From positions 1 through 4,617 of IMG/VR virus record IMGVR_UViG_2529292874_000013: a stretch of DNA of 4,617 nt. The stretch is one strand, 5' to 3'. The notes under the pieces were generated by a model. That model did not search any database and was not told the origin of the DNA. It saw nothing but the letters and a program-made list of their open reading frames with translations. Shown here in pieces: positions 1 to 4,617 of the stretch. The stretch's first letter is position 1; every line of letters starts with the position of its first letter. A program made the translations under genes and the position numbers. Origin of the DNA: a virus. Taxonomy: Duplodnaviria > Heunggongvirae > Uroviricota > Caudoviricetes.

Positions 1-1477
1 CGAGCATACGGAATTCAACCGTCTGCTGGGGCTGGGGAATGAACTGCTTCAGCAGCGTCAGGGACTGGTGAATGTACCGTTACGGCTGCCGCAGGCCACC
101 CTGGATGATAAACAGCAGAGTGCCCTGACAAAAACAGAGCGTGAGCTGGCCCTGTCCAGACTGAAAGGGGAAGAAAAAGAGCGTGTCCGACTGGGGTATG
201 CGGCGGATGACCTCGGTTTTGTGGGTGATCCGTATCAGGAGGCGAGACAACGTTATATCAGTAATGCCCTGGAAGCCTGGCGCAATAACGAGGCGAATAA
301 ACCCAAATCCCGGGGTGGAAAATCAGAGACGGAAAAAGCGGAAGACAGTTTTTCCCGGCTGCTGAAGCAGCAGAAAGAGCAACTGGCACTGGTGGGGCAG
401 AATACAGAGCTGGCGAAGCTGAAATACCAGACAGCGCTGGGTGAACTGAAAACCCTGACGGAGATGCAGAAGCAGGAACTGCTGCGTAACGCGACCCTGA
501 TTGACCAGCAAAAAATCCGGGAACAGTTGCGATCCCGGGAAGAGACACTGAAGAATGAGAATGCGGCTGCGCGTGCGTCGAATGATGCTGAACTGCTGGG
601 GTACGGGCAGGGGGAGCGAGCCAGAGAACGCATGCGGGAGTTGCAGCAGATCCGCGACAGCTTCCGCCAGAAGGATGCGGACCTTCAGTCTCAGTATCAG
701 ACCGGGGATATCAGTGAGGATTTTTACAGACAGGCTCTGGCACAGAACGCGCAGTATCTGAGCGAACGCCTTAAGGACCAGGCAGTCTTTTATGCCGAAT
801 CGGATGTGCAGCGTGCGGACTGGCAGAAAGGGCTGCAGGAGGGATTCAGTAACTGGGTGGATAATGCGTCCGATTACGCCTCACAGGCAGCACAGCTGGC
901 GACGGAGGGTATCTCAGGGATGGTGAATAACATCACGGAGATGCTGAACGGAAATAAAGTGGAATGGCGCAGCTGGGCCTCATCAGTGCTGCAGGAAATA
1001 TCAAAAGTTCTTATGAATGCCGCGATTGTCAACGGAATTAAGACGGCGGCAAACGGTATGTCCGGTGCGGGAGGATTTCTCGGCAGCATTGGTGACTGGC
1101 TGGGCGGAGCGGTGGCCAATGCAAAAGGCGGCGTGTATACCTCGGCAAACCTGAGCGCGTACAGCAACAGCATTGTGGACACGCCCACGTACTTTGCGTT
1201 TGCAAAAGGGGCCGGGCTGATGGGGGAAGCCGGACCTGAAGCTATTATGCCCCTGACCCGGGCGGCGGATGGCTCGCTGGGCGTACGCGCCGTGGGCAGT
1301 ATGAACGGCAGTGCTGGTCTGGTGTATTCCCCGGTCTACCACATCGCCATTCAGAATGACGGGGCTAACGGACAGATAGGGCCGGAGGCGGCAGGCAGTC
1401 TTGTGCAGCTGATTGACCAGCGGGTGCAGGCGGTGATGCTGTCCATGCGACGTGACGGAGGAATGCTGAGTGGCTGA
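1..1477 (+). CDS. H: Tail length tape measure protein (lambda gpH-like), C-terminal portion; the 5' end lies upstream of the window
   Basis: The frame is open from the window edge (no stop in codons 2..67) to TGA at 1475-1477; the GTG at 68 used by the ORF track is only the first in-frame start inside the window. The N-terminal part is charged and Q/E/K/R-rich (coiled-coil-like), and the C-terminal part is Gly/Ala-rich, as is typical of tape measure proteins. It sits immediately upstream of M-L-K-I-J in lambda-like synteny, and its stop overlaps the M start. Confidence 0.85.
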   Translation, partial: EHTEFNRLLGLGNELLQQRQGLVNVPLRLPQATLDDKQQSALTKTERELALSRLKGEEKERVRLGYAADDLGFVGDPYQEARQRYISNALEAWRNNEANKPKSRGGKSETEKAEDSFSRLLKQQKEQLALVGQNTELAKLKYQTALGELKTLTEMQKQELLRNATLIDQQKIREQLRSREETLKNENAAARASNDAELLGYGQGERARERMRELQQIRDSFRQKDADLQSQYQTGDISEDFYRQALAQNAQYLSERLKDQAVFYAESDVQRADWQKGLQEGFSNWVDNASDYASQAAQLATEGISGMVNNITEMLNGNKVEWRSWASSVLQEISKVLMNAAIVNGIKTAANGMSGAGGFLGSIGDWLGGAVANAKGGVYTSANLSAYSNSIVDTPTYFAFAKGAGLMGEAGPEAIMPLTRAADGSLGVRAVGSMNGSAGLVYSPVYHIAIQNDGANGQIGPEAAGSLVQLIDQRVQAVMLSMRRDGGMLSG

Positions 1478-1811
1478 GATAAAAACGCTGCATCTGGTCC
1501 CGCGTGAAGGGATGCAGGTGAGTGAGAAGCCGTCGGTGGTGAGGGTGCGGTTTGGTGACGGTTATGAACAGCGCCGCCCCACAGGGCTGAATCCTCAACT
1601 GAAGACGTTTCAGGCGGTGTTCCGGGTGACGGATGAGTCAACCCGGCGCTGGCTGGATGAATTTTTATCCTGGCATGGTGGTTACCGTGCCTTTTTGTGG
1701 CGACCGCCGAAACATAACCGGACGGTGAGGGTGGTGTGCCGGGAGTGGAGCGTCACGGATAACGCCCGGTACAGTGATTTCAGCTGTACGATTGAGCAGG
1801 TGGTGAACTGA
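1470..1811 (+). CDS. M: Minor tail protein M (lambda gpM-like), 113 aa, GTG start
   Basis: The translation (VAEIKTLHLVPREGMQVSEKPSVVRVRFGDGYEQR...FSCTIEQVVN) matches my recollection of lambda gpM (VRFGDGY motif, C-terminal EQVVN). The GTG start at 1470 is preceded by a GGAGG Shine-Dalgarno at about 1456-1461 and overlaps the H stop by 8 nt. The stop TGA at 1809-1811 overlaps the L start as ATGA. Confidence 0.9.
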   Translation: MAEIKTLHLVPREGMQVSEKPSVVRVRFGDGYEQRRPTGLNPQLKTFQAVFRVTDESTRRWLDEFLSWHGGYRAFLWRPPKHNRTVRVVCREWSVTDNARYSDFSCTIEQVVN

Positions 1812-2508
1812 TGCAGAATATTCATGAAGAAAGCCTGAACGAGTCGGTTAAATCAGAGCAGTCACCGCGGGTGGTGCTCTGGGAAATCGACCTGACGGTG
1901 CAGGGCGGTGAGCGGTATTTTTTCTGTAATGAGCTGAATGAAAAAAGGGAGCCGGTGACCTGGCAGGGGCGGAATATCAGGCATACCCGATTGACGGCAG
2001 CGGCTTTGAGATGAACGGGAAGGGCAGCAGTGCCCGCCCGTCACTGACGGTGTCCAATCTGTTCGGTCTTGTCACCGGGATGGCGGAGGATTTGCAGAGC
2101 CTGGTGGGTGCCACGGTGGTCCGCCGCCGGGTGTATGCGCGTTTTCTGGATGCGGTGAACTTTGTGGCAGGCAATCCGGAGGCCGACCCGGAGCAGGAGC
2201 TGACTGACCGGTGGGTGGTGGAGCAGATGTCATCGCTGACGGCCATGACGGCCTCGTTTGTGCTGGCCACACCGACCGAGACGGACGGGGCGCTGTTTCC
2301 CGGTCGCATCATGCTGGCGAACACCTGTATGTGGACCTACCGCTCTGATGAGTGTGGTTACACGGGCGGGGCTGTGGCGGATGAGTTCGATAAACCCACC
2401 ACCGATATCCGTAAGGACAGATGCAGCAAGTGCATGCGCGGGTGTGAGATGCGCGGCATGGTGGCTAATTTTGGCGGTTTCCTTTCCATCAATAAACTTT
2501 CGCAGTAA
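1811..2508 (+). pseudogene. L: Minor tail protein L (lambda gpL-like) interrupted by an apparent single-base deletion near 1970-1975; either a pseudogene or a sequencing error
   Basis: ORF 1811..2014 (MQNIHEESLNE...VVLWEIDLT...GERYFFCNE...PVTWQGR) and ORF 2011..2508 (NGKGSSARPSLTVSNL...FGGFLSINKLSQ) together reproduce a full gpL-like protein. In the other frame from 1972 the sequence reads EYQAYPIDGSGFEMNGKG, which is the expected continuation after WQGR. The two halves sum to 698 nt, so adding one base restores a 232-aa ORF. The break lies in the G-rich stretch caggggcgg(g)aatat. Confidence 0.8.
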
Positions 2509-2518
2509 ATCCTGGTTT

Positions 2519-3262
2519 ATGACACAGACTGAATCAGCGATTCTGGTGCATGCCCGGCGGTGTGCGCCTGCGGAGTCGTGCGGCTTCGTGATAGGCACCC
2601 CGGAGGGCGAACGGTACCAGCCCTGCGTGAATATCTCCGCAGAGCCGGAGGCGTATTTTCGTATTGCGCCGGAAGACTGGCTGCAGGCAGAGATGCAGGG
2701 GGAGATTGTGGCGCTGGTTCACAGCCACCCTGGTGGTCTGCCCTGGCTGAGCGAGGCCGACCGGCGGCTGCAGATAAAGAGTGCACTGTCCTGGTGGCTG
2801 GTCTGCCGGGGGGAAATTCATAAATTCCGCTGTGTGCCACATCTGACAGGACGGCGCTTTGAGCACGGGGTGACGGACTGTTACACGCTGTTCCGGGATG
2901 CCTACCATCTGGCGGGAATTGATATGCCGGATTTTGAGCGTGAGGATGACTGGTGGCGTAACGGTCAGAACCTTTACCTGGACAATATGGCGGTCACAGG
3001 CTTTTACCGGGTGCCCCTGTCCTCTGCACAGGCGGGCGATATCCTGCTGTGCTGCTTTGGCGCATCGGTGGCCAATCATGCCGCCATATACTGCGGCAAC
3101 GGTGAACTGCTTCACCATCTGCCTGAACAACTGAGTAAACGGGAGAGGTATTCCGAAAAATGGCAACGACGAACGCATTCAGCCTGGCGTCACCGCCACT
3201 GGCACGTATCTGCCTTCACGGGGATTTGCAACGATTTGGCCGCCGCCTCAGCCTGTATGTGA
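2519..3262 (+). CDS. K: Tail tip assembly protein K (lambda gpK-like) with an N-terminal JAMM/MPN metalloprotease-like domain and a C-terminal NlpC/P60 cysteine peptidase-like domain
   Basis: ATG at 2519 starts MTQTESAILVHARRCAPAESCGF..., 10 nt after the L stop (2506-2508). A JAMM-type motif HSHPGGLPWLSEAD (H-x-H-x7-S-x2-D) is present, followed by an NlpC/P60-like Cys (GVTDCYTLF) and His (NHAAIY). The 2258..2518 part of the six-frame ORF is an upstream read-through that overlaps L in another frame. Confidence 0.88.
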   Translation: MTQTESAILVHARRCAPAESCGFVIGTPEGERYQPCVNISAEPEAYFRIAPEDWLQAEMQGEIVALVHSHPGGLPWLSEADRRLQIKSALSWWLVCRGEIHKFRCVPHLTGRRFEHGVTDCYTLFRDAYHLAGIDMPDFEREDDWWRNGQNLYLDNMAVTGFYRVPLSSAQAGDILLCCFGASVANHAAIYCGNGELLHHLPEQLSKRERYSEKWQRRTHSAWRHRHWHVSAFTGICNDLAAASACM

Positions 3263-3837
3263 ACACGGCAGCGGAAGCCATCCGGGCGCTGTCGTTACAG
3301 GTGCCGGGATTCCGCCGTCAGATGAACGAAGGCTGGTACCAGATACGTATTCGCGGTGAGGACACGGCACCGGAGGCGGTGTACGCCCGTCTTCACGAAC
3401 CTCTGGGTGAGGGGGCGGTCATCCATATTGTGCCGCGACTGGCCGGAGCCGGAAAGGGCGGACTGCAGATTGTGCTGGGGGCAGCAGCCATCGTGGGCTC
3501 TTTCTTCACCGCCGGCGCAACGATGGCGTTGTGGGGCGCAGCCCTGAGTGCCGGAGGGCTGACTGCCACCACGATGCTGTTCTCACTGGGTGCCAGCATG
3601 ATACTGGGCGGTGTGGCCCAGATGCTGGCACCGAAGGCAAAAACACCGGATTACCGCGCAACGGATAACGGTAAACAGAACACGTATTTTTCGTCACTGG
3701 ATAACATGATTGCCCAGGGGAACCCGATGCCGGTGCCTTATGGTGAAATGCTGGTTGGTTCACGACGGATATCCCAGGACATCAGCACCCGTGATGAGGG
3801 CGGAGACGGGAAAGTGGTGGTTATCGGGCGGGGATGA
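3160..3837 (+). CDS. I: Tail tip assembly protein I (lambda gpI-like), 225 aa
   Basis: The translation (MATTNAFSLASPPLARICLHGDLQRFGRR...AVIHIVPRLAGAGKGG...GNPMPVPYGEMLVGSRRISQDISTRDEGGDGKVVVIGRG) matches my recollection of gpI, with an N-terminal ubiquitin-like region and a C-terminal Gly/Ala-rich hydrophobic stretch. The start overlaps the K 3' end by 103 nt in a different frame. A GGAGAGG Shine-Dalgarno lies at 3142-3148. Confidence 0.9.
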   Translation: MATTNAFSLASPPLARICLHGDLQRFGRRLSLYVNTAAEAIRALSLQVPGFRRQMNEGWYQIRIRGEDTAPEAVYARLHEPLGEGAVIHIVPRLAGAGKGGLQIVLGAAAIVGSFFTAGATMALWGAALSAGGLTATTMLFSLGASMILGGVAQMLAPKAKTPDYRATDNGKQNTYFSSLDNMIAQGNPMPVPYGEMLVGSRRISQDISTRDEGGDGKVVVIGRG

Positions 3838-3875
3838 AAATAAAAAAATCCCGCAGAGTTAGCGGAGCTGCGGGA
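3837..3875 (-). terminator. Inverted repeat (stem 3849-3856 / 3868-3875, tcccgcag / ctgcggga) whose T-tract is on the minus strand (the + strand A-run at 3837-3848); a possible minus-strand intrinsic terminator or RNA structure
   Basis: An 8-bp perfect stem with an 11-nt loop is read directly from the sequence. On the minus strand the hairpin is followed by atttttttatttt. On the + strand it overlaps the Shine-Dalgarno of the small ORF at 3883. Confidence 0.35.
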
Positions 3876-3882
3876 GAGAACG

Positions 3883-4002
3883 ATGAAGATTAACGTTATG
3901 GAGTTATTTTTCAGGCATCAAAAAAGTAATGCAGCGTCATTATTGCGGCTACAGGCAATTGCCGGAAATGTGAAGAGTTTCAGAAATTTTATTCCGTCAT
4001 GA
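3883..4002 (+). CDS. Hypothetical small protein, 39 aa (MKINVMELFFRHQKSNAASLLRLQAIAGNVKSFRNFIPS), in the AT-rich segment between I and J
   Basis: ATG at 3883 is preceded by GGGAGAG (3872-3878) at a 4-6 nt spacing, and the ORF ends at TGA 4000-4002, immediately before a strong hairpin plus T-tract terminator. The region is visibly AT-rich compared with the flanking GC-rich tail genes. I recognise no homolog, and the ORF is too short for the sequence alone to establish that it is coding. Confidence 0.3.
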   Translation: MKINVMELFFRHQKSNAASLLRLQAIAGNVKSFRNFIPS

Positions 4003-4004
4003 CA

Positions 4005-4035
4005 CAGGCACCCTCCGGGGTGCCTGTTGTTTTCT
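4005..4035 (+). terminator. Rho-independent terminator: 9-bp GC-rich stem (caggcaccc / gggtgcctg), 4-nt loop (tccg), then T-tract ttgttttct
   Basis: Stem 4005-4013 pairs perfectly with 4018-4026, the loop is 4014-4017, and the T-rich run 4027-4035 follows directly. It sits 3 nt after the small ORF stop and about 40 nt upstream of the J start. Confidence 0.65.
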
Positions 4036-4061
4036 GGCATAAACAGATTCAGACATCAGAC

Positions 4062-4072
4062 AGGAGAGGGGG
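4062..4072 (+). promoter_or_regulatory. Purine-rich Shine-Dalgarno region (aggagaggggg) for J
   Basis: AGGAG and a G-run lie 6-11 nt upstream of the GTG at 4078, which opens the MGKGGGKGHTP-type N-terminus. Confidence 0.5.
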
Positions 4073-4077
4073 ACAGA

Positions 4078-4617
4078 GTGGGTAAAGGGGGCGGCAAGGG
4101 GCACACGCCGGTAGAGGCAAAGGACAATCTTAAGTCCACGCAGATGATGAGCGTGATTGATGCCATTGGTGAAGGGCCGATTGAAGGTCCGGTGAAGGGG
4201 CTGCAGAGTATCTGGTGAACAAAACCCCGCTGACGGACACGGACGGTAATCCTGTGATACATGGTGTGACAGCGGTCTGGCGCGCCGGGGAGCAGGAGCA
4301 GACACCACCTGAAGGCTTTGAGTCCTCCGGAGCTGAAACCGCACTGGGCGTGGAAGTGACGAAGGCAAAGCCGGTGACGCGCACCATTACGTCCGCGAAC
4401 ATTGACCGCCTGCGGGTCACCTTCGGGGTGCAGTCACTGTTGGAGACCACCTCAAAGGGCGACCGTAATCCCTCTTCTGTCCGACTGCTGATTCAGTTGC
4501 AGCGTAACGGTAACTGGGTGACGGAAAAGGATGTCACCATTAACGGCAAGACCACCTCGCAGTTTCTGGCGTCGGTGATTCTGGGTAATCTGCCTCCCCG
4601 TCCTTTAACATCCGGAT
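4078..4617 (+). pseudogene. J: Host specificity / tail tip central fibre protein J (lambda gpJ-like), N-terminal fragment running off the window, with an apparent frameshift near 4209-4215; either a pseudogene or a sequencing error
   Basis: From GTG 4078 the translation is (M)GKGGGKGHTPVEAKDNLKSTQMMSVIDAIGEGPIEGPVKGLQSI, then a stop at 4216-4218. A second frame from about 4212 continues LVNKTPLTDTDGNPVIHGVTAVWRAGEQEQTPPEGFESSGAETALGVEV...TSANIDRLRVTFGVQSLLETTSKGDRNPSSVRLLIQLQRNGNWVTEKDVTINGKTTSQFLASVILGNLPPRP to the window end. Both parts match my recollection of the lambda gpJ N-terminus (MGKGSSKGHTP...KDNLKSTQ...EGPIEGPV...AGEQEQTPPEGFESSG...SANIDRL...KGDRNPS). Restoring one base in atc(c)tgg rejoins the frames. 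Confidence 0.8.

Follow-up and report, generated by a model that had tools for sequence, protein, structure and literature searches.

The closest described relatives of the element analyzed here, the spacer between tail genes I and J in a 4,617-nucleotide stretch of Caudoviricetes DNA (IMG/VR record IMGVR_UViG_2529292874_000013, positions 1 to 4,617; hereafter the window), are RNAs from prophages of enterohemorrhagic (EHEC) and enteropathogenic (EPEC) Escherichia coli. EcOnc22, EcOnc23 and EcOnc24 of EHEC strain Sakai were mapped to prophages Sp15, Sp14 and Sp11, respectively, on the strand opposite the tail genes and with Hfq peaks in CRAC, which combines cross-linking with cDNA analysis; northern blots revealed a product of ~85 nt, and the RNA was destabilized in a delta-hfq strain (Tree et al. 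2014, Mol Cell, Table S2). In prophage PP6 of EPEC strain E2348/69, the 83-nt RNA PasB (NC_011601.1, 1466343-1466261, minus strand) was verified by northern blotting, depends on Hfq, and was recovered by the ligation and sequencing of interacting RNAs (RIL-seq) (Pearl Mizrahi et al. 2021, Sci Adv). Our analysis indicates that the window spacer encodes EcOnc22, an already described small RNA (sRNA) gene, and that it constitutes an autonomous accessory cassette in the late tail operon, the cargo of which is a minus-strand sRNA extending from about 3917 to 3842. We assign a probability of about 0.88 to this sRNA-gene explanation as a whole. An earlier interpretation made from the letters of the window (the sequence-only reading) regarded the spacer as a moron-like cassette carrying a 39-codon open reading frame (ORF) and offered a small RNA as a fallback. 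It is the fallback that proved correct, with an EcOnc22/PasB gene on the minus strand. The elements that define this gene are the following.

3838..4077, no strand assigned: I-J intercistronic spacer, 240 bp, of lower GC
3842..3917, minus strand: sRNA gene EcOnc22, homologue of PasB, ~76 nt to the end of U7, with the 5' end placed by homology to the PasB 5' end mapped by RNA-seq
3842..3875, minus strand: rho-independent terminator of the sRNA, with an 8-bp stem (3868-3875/3849-3856), an 11-nt loop and U7 at 3842-3848
3885..3905, minus strand: conserved, mostly unpaired sRNA body, AACUCC...UUAAUCUUC, the presumed seed

Over its full length, the spacer (3838-4077) is 100% identical to those of the Stx1 prophage VT1-Sakai (Sp15), CP-1639 and Stx2a_WGPS6. 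Since the spacers of Sp15 and the window are identical, the window encodes EcOnc22. The northern probe used for EcOnc22, EcOnc23 and EcOnc24 (GGGAGAGAACGATGAAGATTAAC...) corresponds exactly to plus-strand positions 3872-3894 of the window, with an alignment that reaches 3906, and consequently detects a minus-strand RNA. All three published peaks fall inside I-J spacers of NC_002695.2. On this current Sakai record the published peaks (EcOnc22: 2902714-2902774) lie ~146 nt away from the probe target, and a single offset of about +146 nt from published to current coordinates fits both the EcOnc22 and the EcOnc42 probes. When the offset is applied, the Hfq peak of EcOnc22 occupies window positions 3908-3848, i.e., the sRNA body and its terminator. 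The published coordinates taken at face value would put the peak upstream of the sRNA, at the spacer end nearest to J; this location was dropped, given that the EcOnc22 and EcOnc42 probes resolve to the offset. The PasA/EcOnc51 pair was ambiguous as a coordinate check, with two terminator-like matches.

Note that the EcOnc peaks of Table S2 near 2.2-2.9 Mb appear shifted by ~146 nt with respect to NC_002695.2, and mapping them onto the current record requires correction. Sakai prophage Sp12 holds a PasA homologue (2237468-2237535; L175:669-736) and a second PasA-type terminator ~135 bp downstream (2237669-2237683; L175:870-884). Placed with the offset, EcOnc51 would coincide with this second terminator, which hints at two adjacent PasA-like genes.

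Comparison with EPEC extends the identification to PasB. In PP6 of E2348/69, gene I extends to 1466255 and J begins at 1466496; PasB lies 5 nt past the I stop, and these coordinates establish that it directly follows I, antisense to the tail operon. The PP6 and window spacers align over their entire length (84% mean column identity over the spacer plus 18 bp on each side), and the PasB northern probe aligns to plus-strand positions 3847-3869 of the window. The window gene was found to share with PasB homology to a defined RNA, a stem followed by U7, and a syntenic position after the I stop in antisense orientation, the latter in 163 IMG/VR loci. We infer from these sequence matches that PasB and EcOnc22-24 probably belong to the same family. 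This link is absent from the PasB papers: in the PasB table the note on EHEC homologues is blank, and the study of Zhu, Shabalina and Storz (2026, bioRxiv) does not mention EcOnc22. In EPEC RNA-seq, pasB reached baseMean values of 482 under activating and 1,082 under non-activating conditions, compared to 4.8 for I and 15 for J. In delta-hfq, pasB changed by log2 -6.8 and -2.4, i.e., it was 5- to 100-fold down. The RNA engages in 37 RIL-seq interactions, ranking 15th by interaction number.

The sRNA from 3917 to 3842 folds at -15.8 kcal/mol (z = -2.9) into a small 5' hairpin followed by an unpaired segment and the terminator stem; a primary 5' end near 3932 is also possible. The terminator was recovered in the minus-strand scan (3866-3850 plus a T run) and ends five bases from the I stop codon. 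A hairpin with a minus-strand T tract near I had been described as one of two brackets of the ORF; the structure is present (3875-3842), and it is the terminator of the minus-strand gene rather than an ORF bracket. Our IMG/VR sample comprised 163 related spacers (77 unique), with 50 unique short spacers and 51 distinct promoter heads. Conservation in the 163 spacers tracks the sRNA, the terminator and the promoter box, not the ORF. Among the 50 unique short spacers, neither the stem CCCGCAG/CTGCGGG nor the A7 run changes, whereas the loop does; within the body, the spacer alignment shows the blocks 'GAAGATTAA' and 'GGAGTT' to be conserved. According to Zhu et al. (2026), the seed of PasB lies in the single-stranded segment immediately upstream of the terminator, and the presumed seed region at 3885-3905 would agree with that placement.

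The spacer is widely distributed. Many Stx phages carry homologues at 79-85% identity. Of 5,426 complete E. coli genomes, 1,841 contain the spacer in some form, with as many as 11 occurrences in a single genome, and it is also found in 147 deposited phage records. Recurrence at this scale is not a matter of chance. The best complete-genome match to the window has 97.9% identity, and the window tail genes are 95.6% identical to those of VT1-Sakai over 1792-4617. A scan of 185,579 species genomes with the promoter box pattern described below gave a genuine match in E. albertii only, so that the pattern hardly occurs outside Escherichia, which agrees with Zhu et al. (2026). The sequence-only reading had proposed a search for recurrence of the insert among relatives, and had held that a spacer conserved in relatives with no coding or transcript signal would be just a non-coding linker. 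The insert does recur widely in E. coli genomes and phage records; however, a published transcript exists, on the opposite strand. Contigs of 460-3,408 bp in assemblies of Asaia platycodi, Parendozoicomonas haliclonae and Streptomyces flavalbus (L178, L179 and L181) also hold E. coli lambdoid tail sequence including the spacer (L179 has 98% identity to the window over 311 bp); their occurrence in these three unrelated genera is most likely assembly contamination.

Upstream of the sRNA, three elements are candidates for the control of its expression.

3928-3923, minus strand: candidate -10 TACTTT, 6 nt upstream of the homology-placed 5' end; a TAnnnT inside 'GTTAC' in all cassette types
3944-3939, minus strand: alternative candidate -10 AATAAT, which predicts a start near 3932
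3969..3984, no strand assigned: CRP-like box TGTGA-AGAGTT-TCAGA (TGTGAAGAGTTTCAGA), with 9/10 half-site positions and flanks AAA/AAT

The best-conserved element of the entire cassette is AAATGTGAA-N4-TTCAGAA at 3966-3986, in which the 51 promoter heads differ at the central positions but never in the half-sites. The CRP-like box it contains matches TGTGA-N6-TCACA with one mismatch and is the sole site in the window with at most one; 0.13 such sites are expected by chance, and 25 of 200 shuffles hold at least one. The position of the upstream -10 is occupied by TATAAT, AATAAT, TATCAT, CATAAT, GATAAT or TATAAA in 44 of the 51 heads. The center of the box (3976.5) lies at -59.5 from the homology-placed 5' end (3917), or at -61.5 if the start is 2 nt downstream, and at -44.5 from the start that the alternative -10 would give. 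Relative to the homology-placed 5' end the geometry would be class I-like, and control by CRP through the putative box at 3969-3984 is suggested by these motif matches. Circumstantially, the EPEC condition with more PasB is the one with ~5-fold less of Spf, which CRP represses. Neither a promoter nor CRP is mentioned by Zhu et al. (2026), and the recognition of a conserved CRP-like box as the best-conserved element is a modest addition to the published accounts of PasB and EcOnc22-24.

We propose that a weak promoter at ~3920-3945 would initiate leftward transcription, probably with the help of a factor at the conserved CRP-like box (3969-3984), and that ~76-90 nt would be made before transcription stops at the hairpin and U7 (3875-3842). 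In lysogens with silent tail genes the RNA accumulates, bound and stabilized by Hfq, and is ligated to dozens of RNAs in RIL-seq experiments. It may then act in trans by base pairing through the unpaired AACUCC...UUAAUCUUC (3905-3885), and we infer that targets are regulated through this segment (3885-3905). If the sRNA is indeed trans-acting, it would endow the prophage with a lysogenic-conversion function.

The J-proximal part of the spacer and its flanking genes define the junction into which the cassette is set.

4004..4035, plus strand: hairpin with T-rich tail, 10 bp, loop TCCG, stem 4004-4027, tail to 4035; an intrinsic terminator or a structural element
4036..4080, plus strand: J leader and start, with a purine-rich Shine-Dalgarno region (GGAGAGGGGGA) and GTG at 4078-4080; J of VT1-Sakai starts at the homologous base
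3160..3837, plus strand: tail assembly gene I, 225 aa, stop TGA at 3835-3837; the homologous VT1-Sakai coding sequence is tail assembly protein I

The hairpin at 4004-4035 has a folding energy of -21.1 kcal/mol when folded alone and displays one compensatory change, from a C-G to a T-A pair, in relatives. An attempt to assign the strand of its stem (4004-4027) from G-U wobble intermediates was uninformative, with intermediates in both directions. The hairpin occurs once per spacer, at the J end, regardless of the number of cassettes. In lambda, which the sequence-only reading described as having directly adjacent I stop and J start codons, I extends to 15444 and J begins at 15505, and the 60 bp between them contain a hairpin and T run of their own. 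Since the lambda spacer also has these features, the terminator-like element before J seems to be an ancestral feature of the junction. Because the 4004-4035 hairpin is found once per spacer and has a lambda analogue, it is regarded as belonging to the ordinary I-J junction and as lying outside the sRNA cassette. Consequently, the strong terminator that the sequence-only reading saw after the ORF is real, but it is not part of the cassette. Lambda matches the spacer region only from the J start codon region onward, the cassette being absent, and with 60 bp in lambda the extra DNA of the window amounts to ~180 bp, not 240. The lambda spacer (15445-15504; L176:746-805) has the plus-strand hairpin CCGCC-TGCG-GGCGG followed by TTTTGTCATTT, and ahead of the hairpin stands AAAATGTTTTATGTGAAA, a sequence similar to the box's left half. 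Polymerase modified by Q would read through the terminator at 4004-4035.

The window as a whole is a lambdoid tail module with the C-terminal part of H (68-1477), M (1470-1811), L (1811-2508) and K (ending at 3262). According to its ORF list, the stops and starts of neighboring genes overlap or abut from H through I, a tight packing that had been noted before, as had the low-GC segment of ~240 bp between I and J, which is real and extends from 3838 to 4077, between the I stop at 3835-3837 and the J GTG at 4078. GC is 0.39-0.46 over 3850-4049 and 0.55-0.67 in the flanks. A terminator scan of 3600-4300 returned three sites, with 0.6 expected. Three 1-base deletions relative to VT1-Sakai occur at ~1972, ~4210 and ~4601, in short G, T and C homopolymers. 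Single-base deletions split L into 1811-2014 and 2011-2508, and J is stopped after 46 codons (4216-4218). The three deletions are either sequencing errors or the marks of pseudogenes in a decaying prophage.

Two alternative explanations place the function of the spacer on the plus strand, one of them in the ORF.

3883..4002, plus strand: 39-codon ORF of the sequence-only reading, not a conserved gene

The ORF exists and is intact in window-type alleles. With a purine-rich stretch (GGGAGAG) 6 nt before the ATG and a terminator right after the stop, it could be taken for a protein-coding moron, in which a 39-aa product is translated from the GGGAGAG site and terminated at 4004-4035. However, the start ATG is ACA or ACG in several spacer types, and in most types the frame shifts or ends after 10-31 codons (22 in E2348/69), so that neither start, frame nor length is kept. 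Among intact alleles 12 differences are nonsynonymous and 1 synonymous, with a single change at a third codon position, instead of the synonymous excess of a small protein. The peptide, which could not be named from the sequence, matched no family in Pfam or PHROGs, and a 40-aa ORF on the minus strand gave nothing meaningful in the same databases. Furthermore, the scan found no plus-strand promoter upstream of the ORF, and in EPEC lysogens the neighboring plus-strand genes are all but silent. The purine-rich stretch and the ATG are the complement of the sRNA's 3' seed and of the flank of its terminator, and the ORF is an accidental mirror image of that sRNA. The comparative data have thus largely refuted the protein-coding explanation, and we regard it as extremely improbable. 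A functional RNA of the plus strand, either derived from a 3' untranslated region or independently started, ending at 4004-4035 and with its seed at 3966-4002, would make sense of the block AAATGTGAAGAnnTTCAGAAATTTTATTCCGTCATGA, which immediately precedes a strong hairpin with its U tail and looks like an Hfq-binding module, and of the conservation of that hairpin with its compensatory pair. Yet both published Hfq data sets contain only the opposite-strand RNA at the spacer, and the wobble intermediates of the hairpin favor neither strand. The conserved block recurs before every cassette of the tandem arrays described below with no plus-strand terminator after it, and therefore belongs to the minus-strand promoter. 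A plus-strand RNA of this kind is very unlikely.

The remaining alternatives accept a minus-strand transcript. If the spacer were a functionless conserved linker and the published RNA noise stabilized by a terminator, it would be no surprise that a 2021 review lists the targets of EcOnc22-24 as unknown and that no target or phenotype is reported. Such a linker would not be expected to keep promoter box, body core and terminator stem across 77 unique spacers in which the intervening positions drift, nor to retain the cassette in up to 11 copies per genome, nor to yield an Hfq-dependent RNA 30- to 200-fold above the flanking genes, and we give this explanation little credence. A mainly cis-acting sRNA is less improbable, although still unlikely. 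Lying wholly inside the I-J region on the opposite strand, the sRNA (3917-3842) is a perfect complement of the late mRNA, and pairing could lead to RNase III cleavage, adjust the level of J, or silence leaky transcripts; a convergent sRNA promoter could also interfere with read-through into J. The strict maintenance of its position directly past the I stop in the 163 related loci and the antisense-oriented cargo at the same junction of phage Fels-1 would fit such a role. Against it, the 37 PasB partners in EPEC RIL-seq lie elsewhere in the genome and point to targets in trans, lambda and many relatives build tails without the cassette, and the unrelated array bodies found at one site are more in keeping with a cargo site than with a dedicated I-J regulator. 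Roles in cis and in trans do not exclude each other: complementarity to the I-J late mRNA is geometrically unavoidable, and an effect of it in cis is putative.

Several observations also weigh against the preferred explanation, an EcOnc22 cassette whose product acts in trans. Expression was measured in Sakai and E2348/69, which are genomes other than that of the window, and the CRAC coordinates fit only with an assumed genome-version offset, itself derived from probe positions. The two -10 candidates give RNAs of 76 and 91 nt, compared to a published EHEC band of ~85 nt. A sigma-70 scan of both strands at a 9-of-12 threshold detected no promoter, in agreement with the sequence-only reading, which had found none convincing on either strand. 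Rfam 15 gave zero matches in the spacer at E up to 1. Finally, the designation 'trans-acting regulator' draws solely on Hfq binding and RIL-seq chimeras.

The I-J junction of related prophages is more complex than that of the window. In relatives, spacer lengths fall into classes of ~240-263, 345, 425, 480-490, 715 and 910-930 bp (each value counts one base of the J start codon). The long classes consist of tandem arrays, with 2-4 cassettes where the window has one. Box and promoter spacing are common to all array cassettes, each of which also has a terminator with a U run; there are at least three unrelated bodies, examples of which are ...GUUAGUCAACAUCG... and ...CUCCUUAAGGUGACUAUUCG... Array loci are listed here with one four-cassette example.

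L048:12175-13082, L053:9509-10438, L047:8169-8884, L111:1593-2017, L092:4145-4623 and L120:5999-6488: array loci in IMG/VR
NZ_CP027373.1, 76249-77157: four-cassette example

The four-cassette array was found in 67 complete E. coli genomes and in zero deposited phage records. Rfam returned no family at gathering thresholds for the Fels-1 locus or for any of four array or variant loci. Zhu et al. (2026) brought up tandem duplication solely in order to rule it out for PasA and PasD; arrays are absent from the PasB papers and represent another modest addition to the published accounts.

Other arrangements of the junction exist. A 346-bp spacer class (L169:5461-5806, at least 19 loci), the commonest in the IMG/VR sample, keeps the PasB cassette, and its J-proximal segment is replaced by ~190 bp in which the J leader is different and the terminator (AAAACCCCGGTATC...GATACCGGGGTTT) is bidirectional. 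In Salmonella phage Fels-1 (NC_010391.1, 32330-33051; L177:436-1157), the I-J junction measures 722 bp and carries the hypothetical 174-aa ORF STM0924 on the opposite strand, which makes the junction an antisense-cargo site outside Escherichia too. It is conceivable, though we advance it only tentatively, that the I-J junction of Stx-type lambdoid prophages is a dedicated, modular docking site for sRNA cassettes, which would make up a recombining library of catabolite-controlled Hfq sRNAs brought by prophages into pathogenic E. coli. In each docking-site cassette, a CRP-type box and a terminator, both conserved, may flank a weak promoter and an exchangeable body of ~50 nt. The arrays have been observed, and to them the proposal adds that the extra cassettes would be expressed, that CRP would drive them, and that bodies would be swapped by recombination between the conserved ends.

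These results bear on annotation and on the biology of the hosts. Some deposited phage records annotate a 'hypothetical protein' at the spacer, which should instead be labeled EcOnc22/PasB, on the minus strand, and not as a hypothetical 39-aa protein. The literatures on EcOnc22-24 of EHEC and on PasB of EPEC are joined. The CRP-like box offers a testable handle on regulation, and the tail-operon junction emerges as a recurrent cargo site that holds from a single to four cassettes. With up to 11 copies of the sRNA per EHEC genome, the timing of its expression and the pairing partners of the paralogous cassettes would bear on how prophages rewire regulation in Shiga-toxin-producing hosts.

Among known systems, the architecture of the cassette is that of the lambdoid morons, such as bor and lom of lambda. 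Like them it is extra DNA between late genes, with lower GC, a terminator of its own, expression in the prophage, and absence from lambda; it differs in its non-coding RNA cargo, its orientation against the operon, and the lack of a recognizable strong sigma-70 promoter. The features by which morons are known can be followed one at a time: extra DNA is present between near-adjacent genes (240 bp, compared to 60 bp in lambda); there is a clear terminator, along with weak -10 candidates, a CRP-like box, and independent expression in EPEC RNA-seq; and the cargo is not protein-coding. The moron-like cassette of the sequence-only reading therefore survives as an independently acquired, self-contained unit with terminators at both ends, lower GC and no lambda counterpart, but with the wrong cargo and the wrong strand.

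AgvB and AsxR (EcOnc01/02; RF02702, RF02703), a class with a shared conserved 3' region of ~42 nt, are likewise short Hfq-bound sRNAs of lambdoid Stx prophages, antisense to neighboring phage genes and set where extra DNA is tolerated. However, they reside at the moron site downstream of PR'/Q whereas the window sRNA lies in the tail operon, and their sRNA-sponge function is not indicated here. Identity with AgvB/AsxR was ruled out by their location at the PR' moron site and by the same empty Rfam 15 search. The 2-4 tandem cassettes of related prophages recall the tandem sRNA paralogues OmrA/B, PrrF1/2 and Qrr1-5 (cited in Zhu et al. 2026), but those have near-identical seeds whereas the array members have unrelated bodies, and the window holds a single cassette. 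PasB, itself Hfq-dependent and ~80 nt long, shares with the window gene its synteny, antisense orientation, terminator stem, core 'AUCUUC' and promoter box; the window allele is without 6 nt in the 5' half, has another terminator loop, and carries AATAAT in place of TATAAT at the upstream -10 candidate. With EcOnc22/23/24 the likeness comprises identical DNA (Sp15), the same strand, the same I-J position, and the probe match at 3872-3906; from EcOnc22 the cassette shows no sequence difference, although the window comes from another genome, with tail genes 95.6% identical to those of VT1-Sakai. The feature itself is consequently already known, and it is the family link, the CRP-like box and the arrays that add, modestly, to its description.

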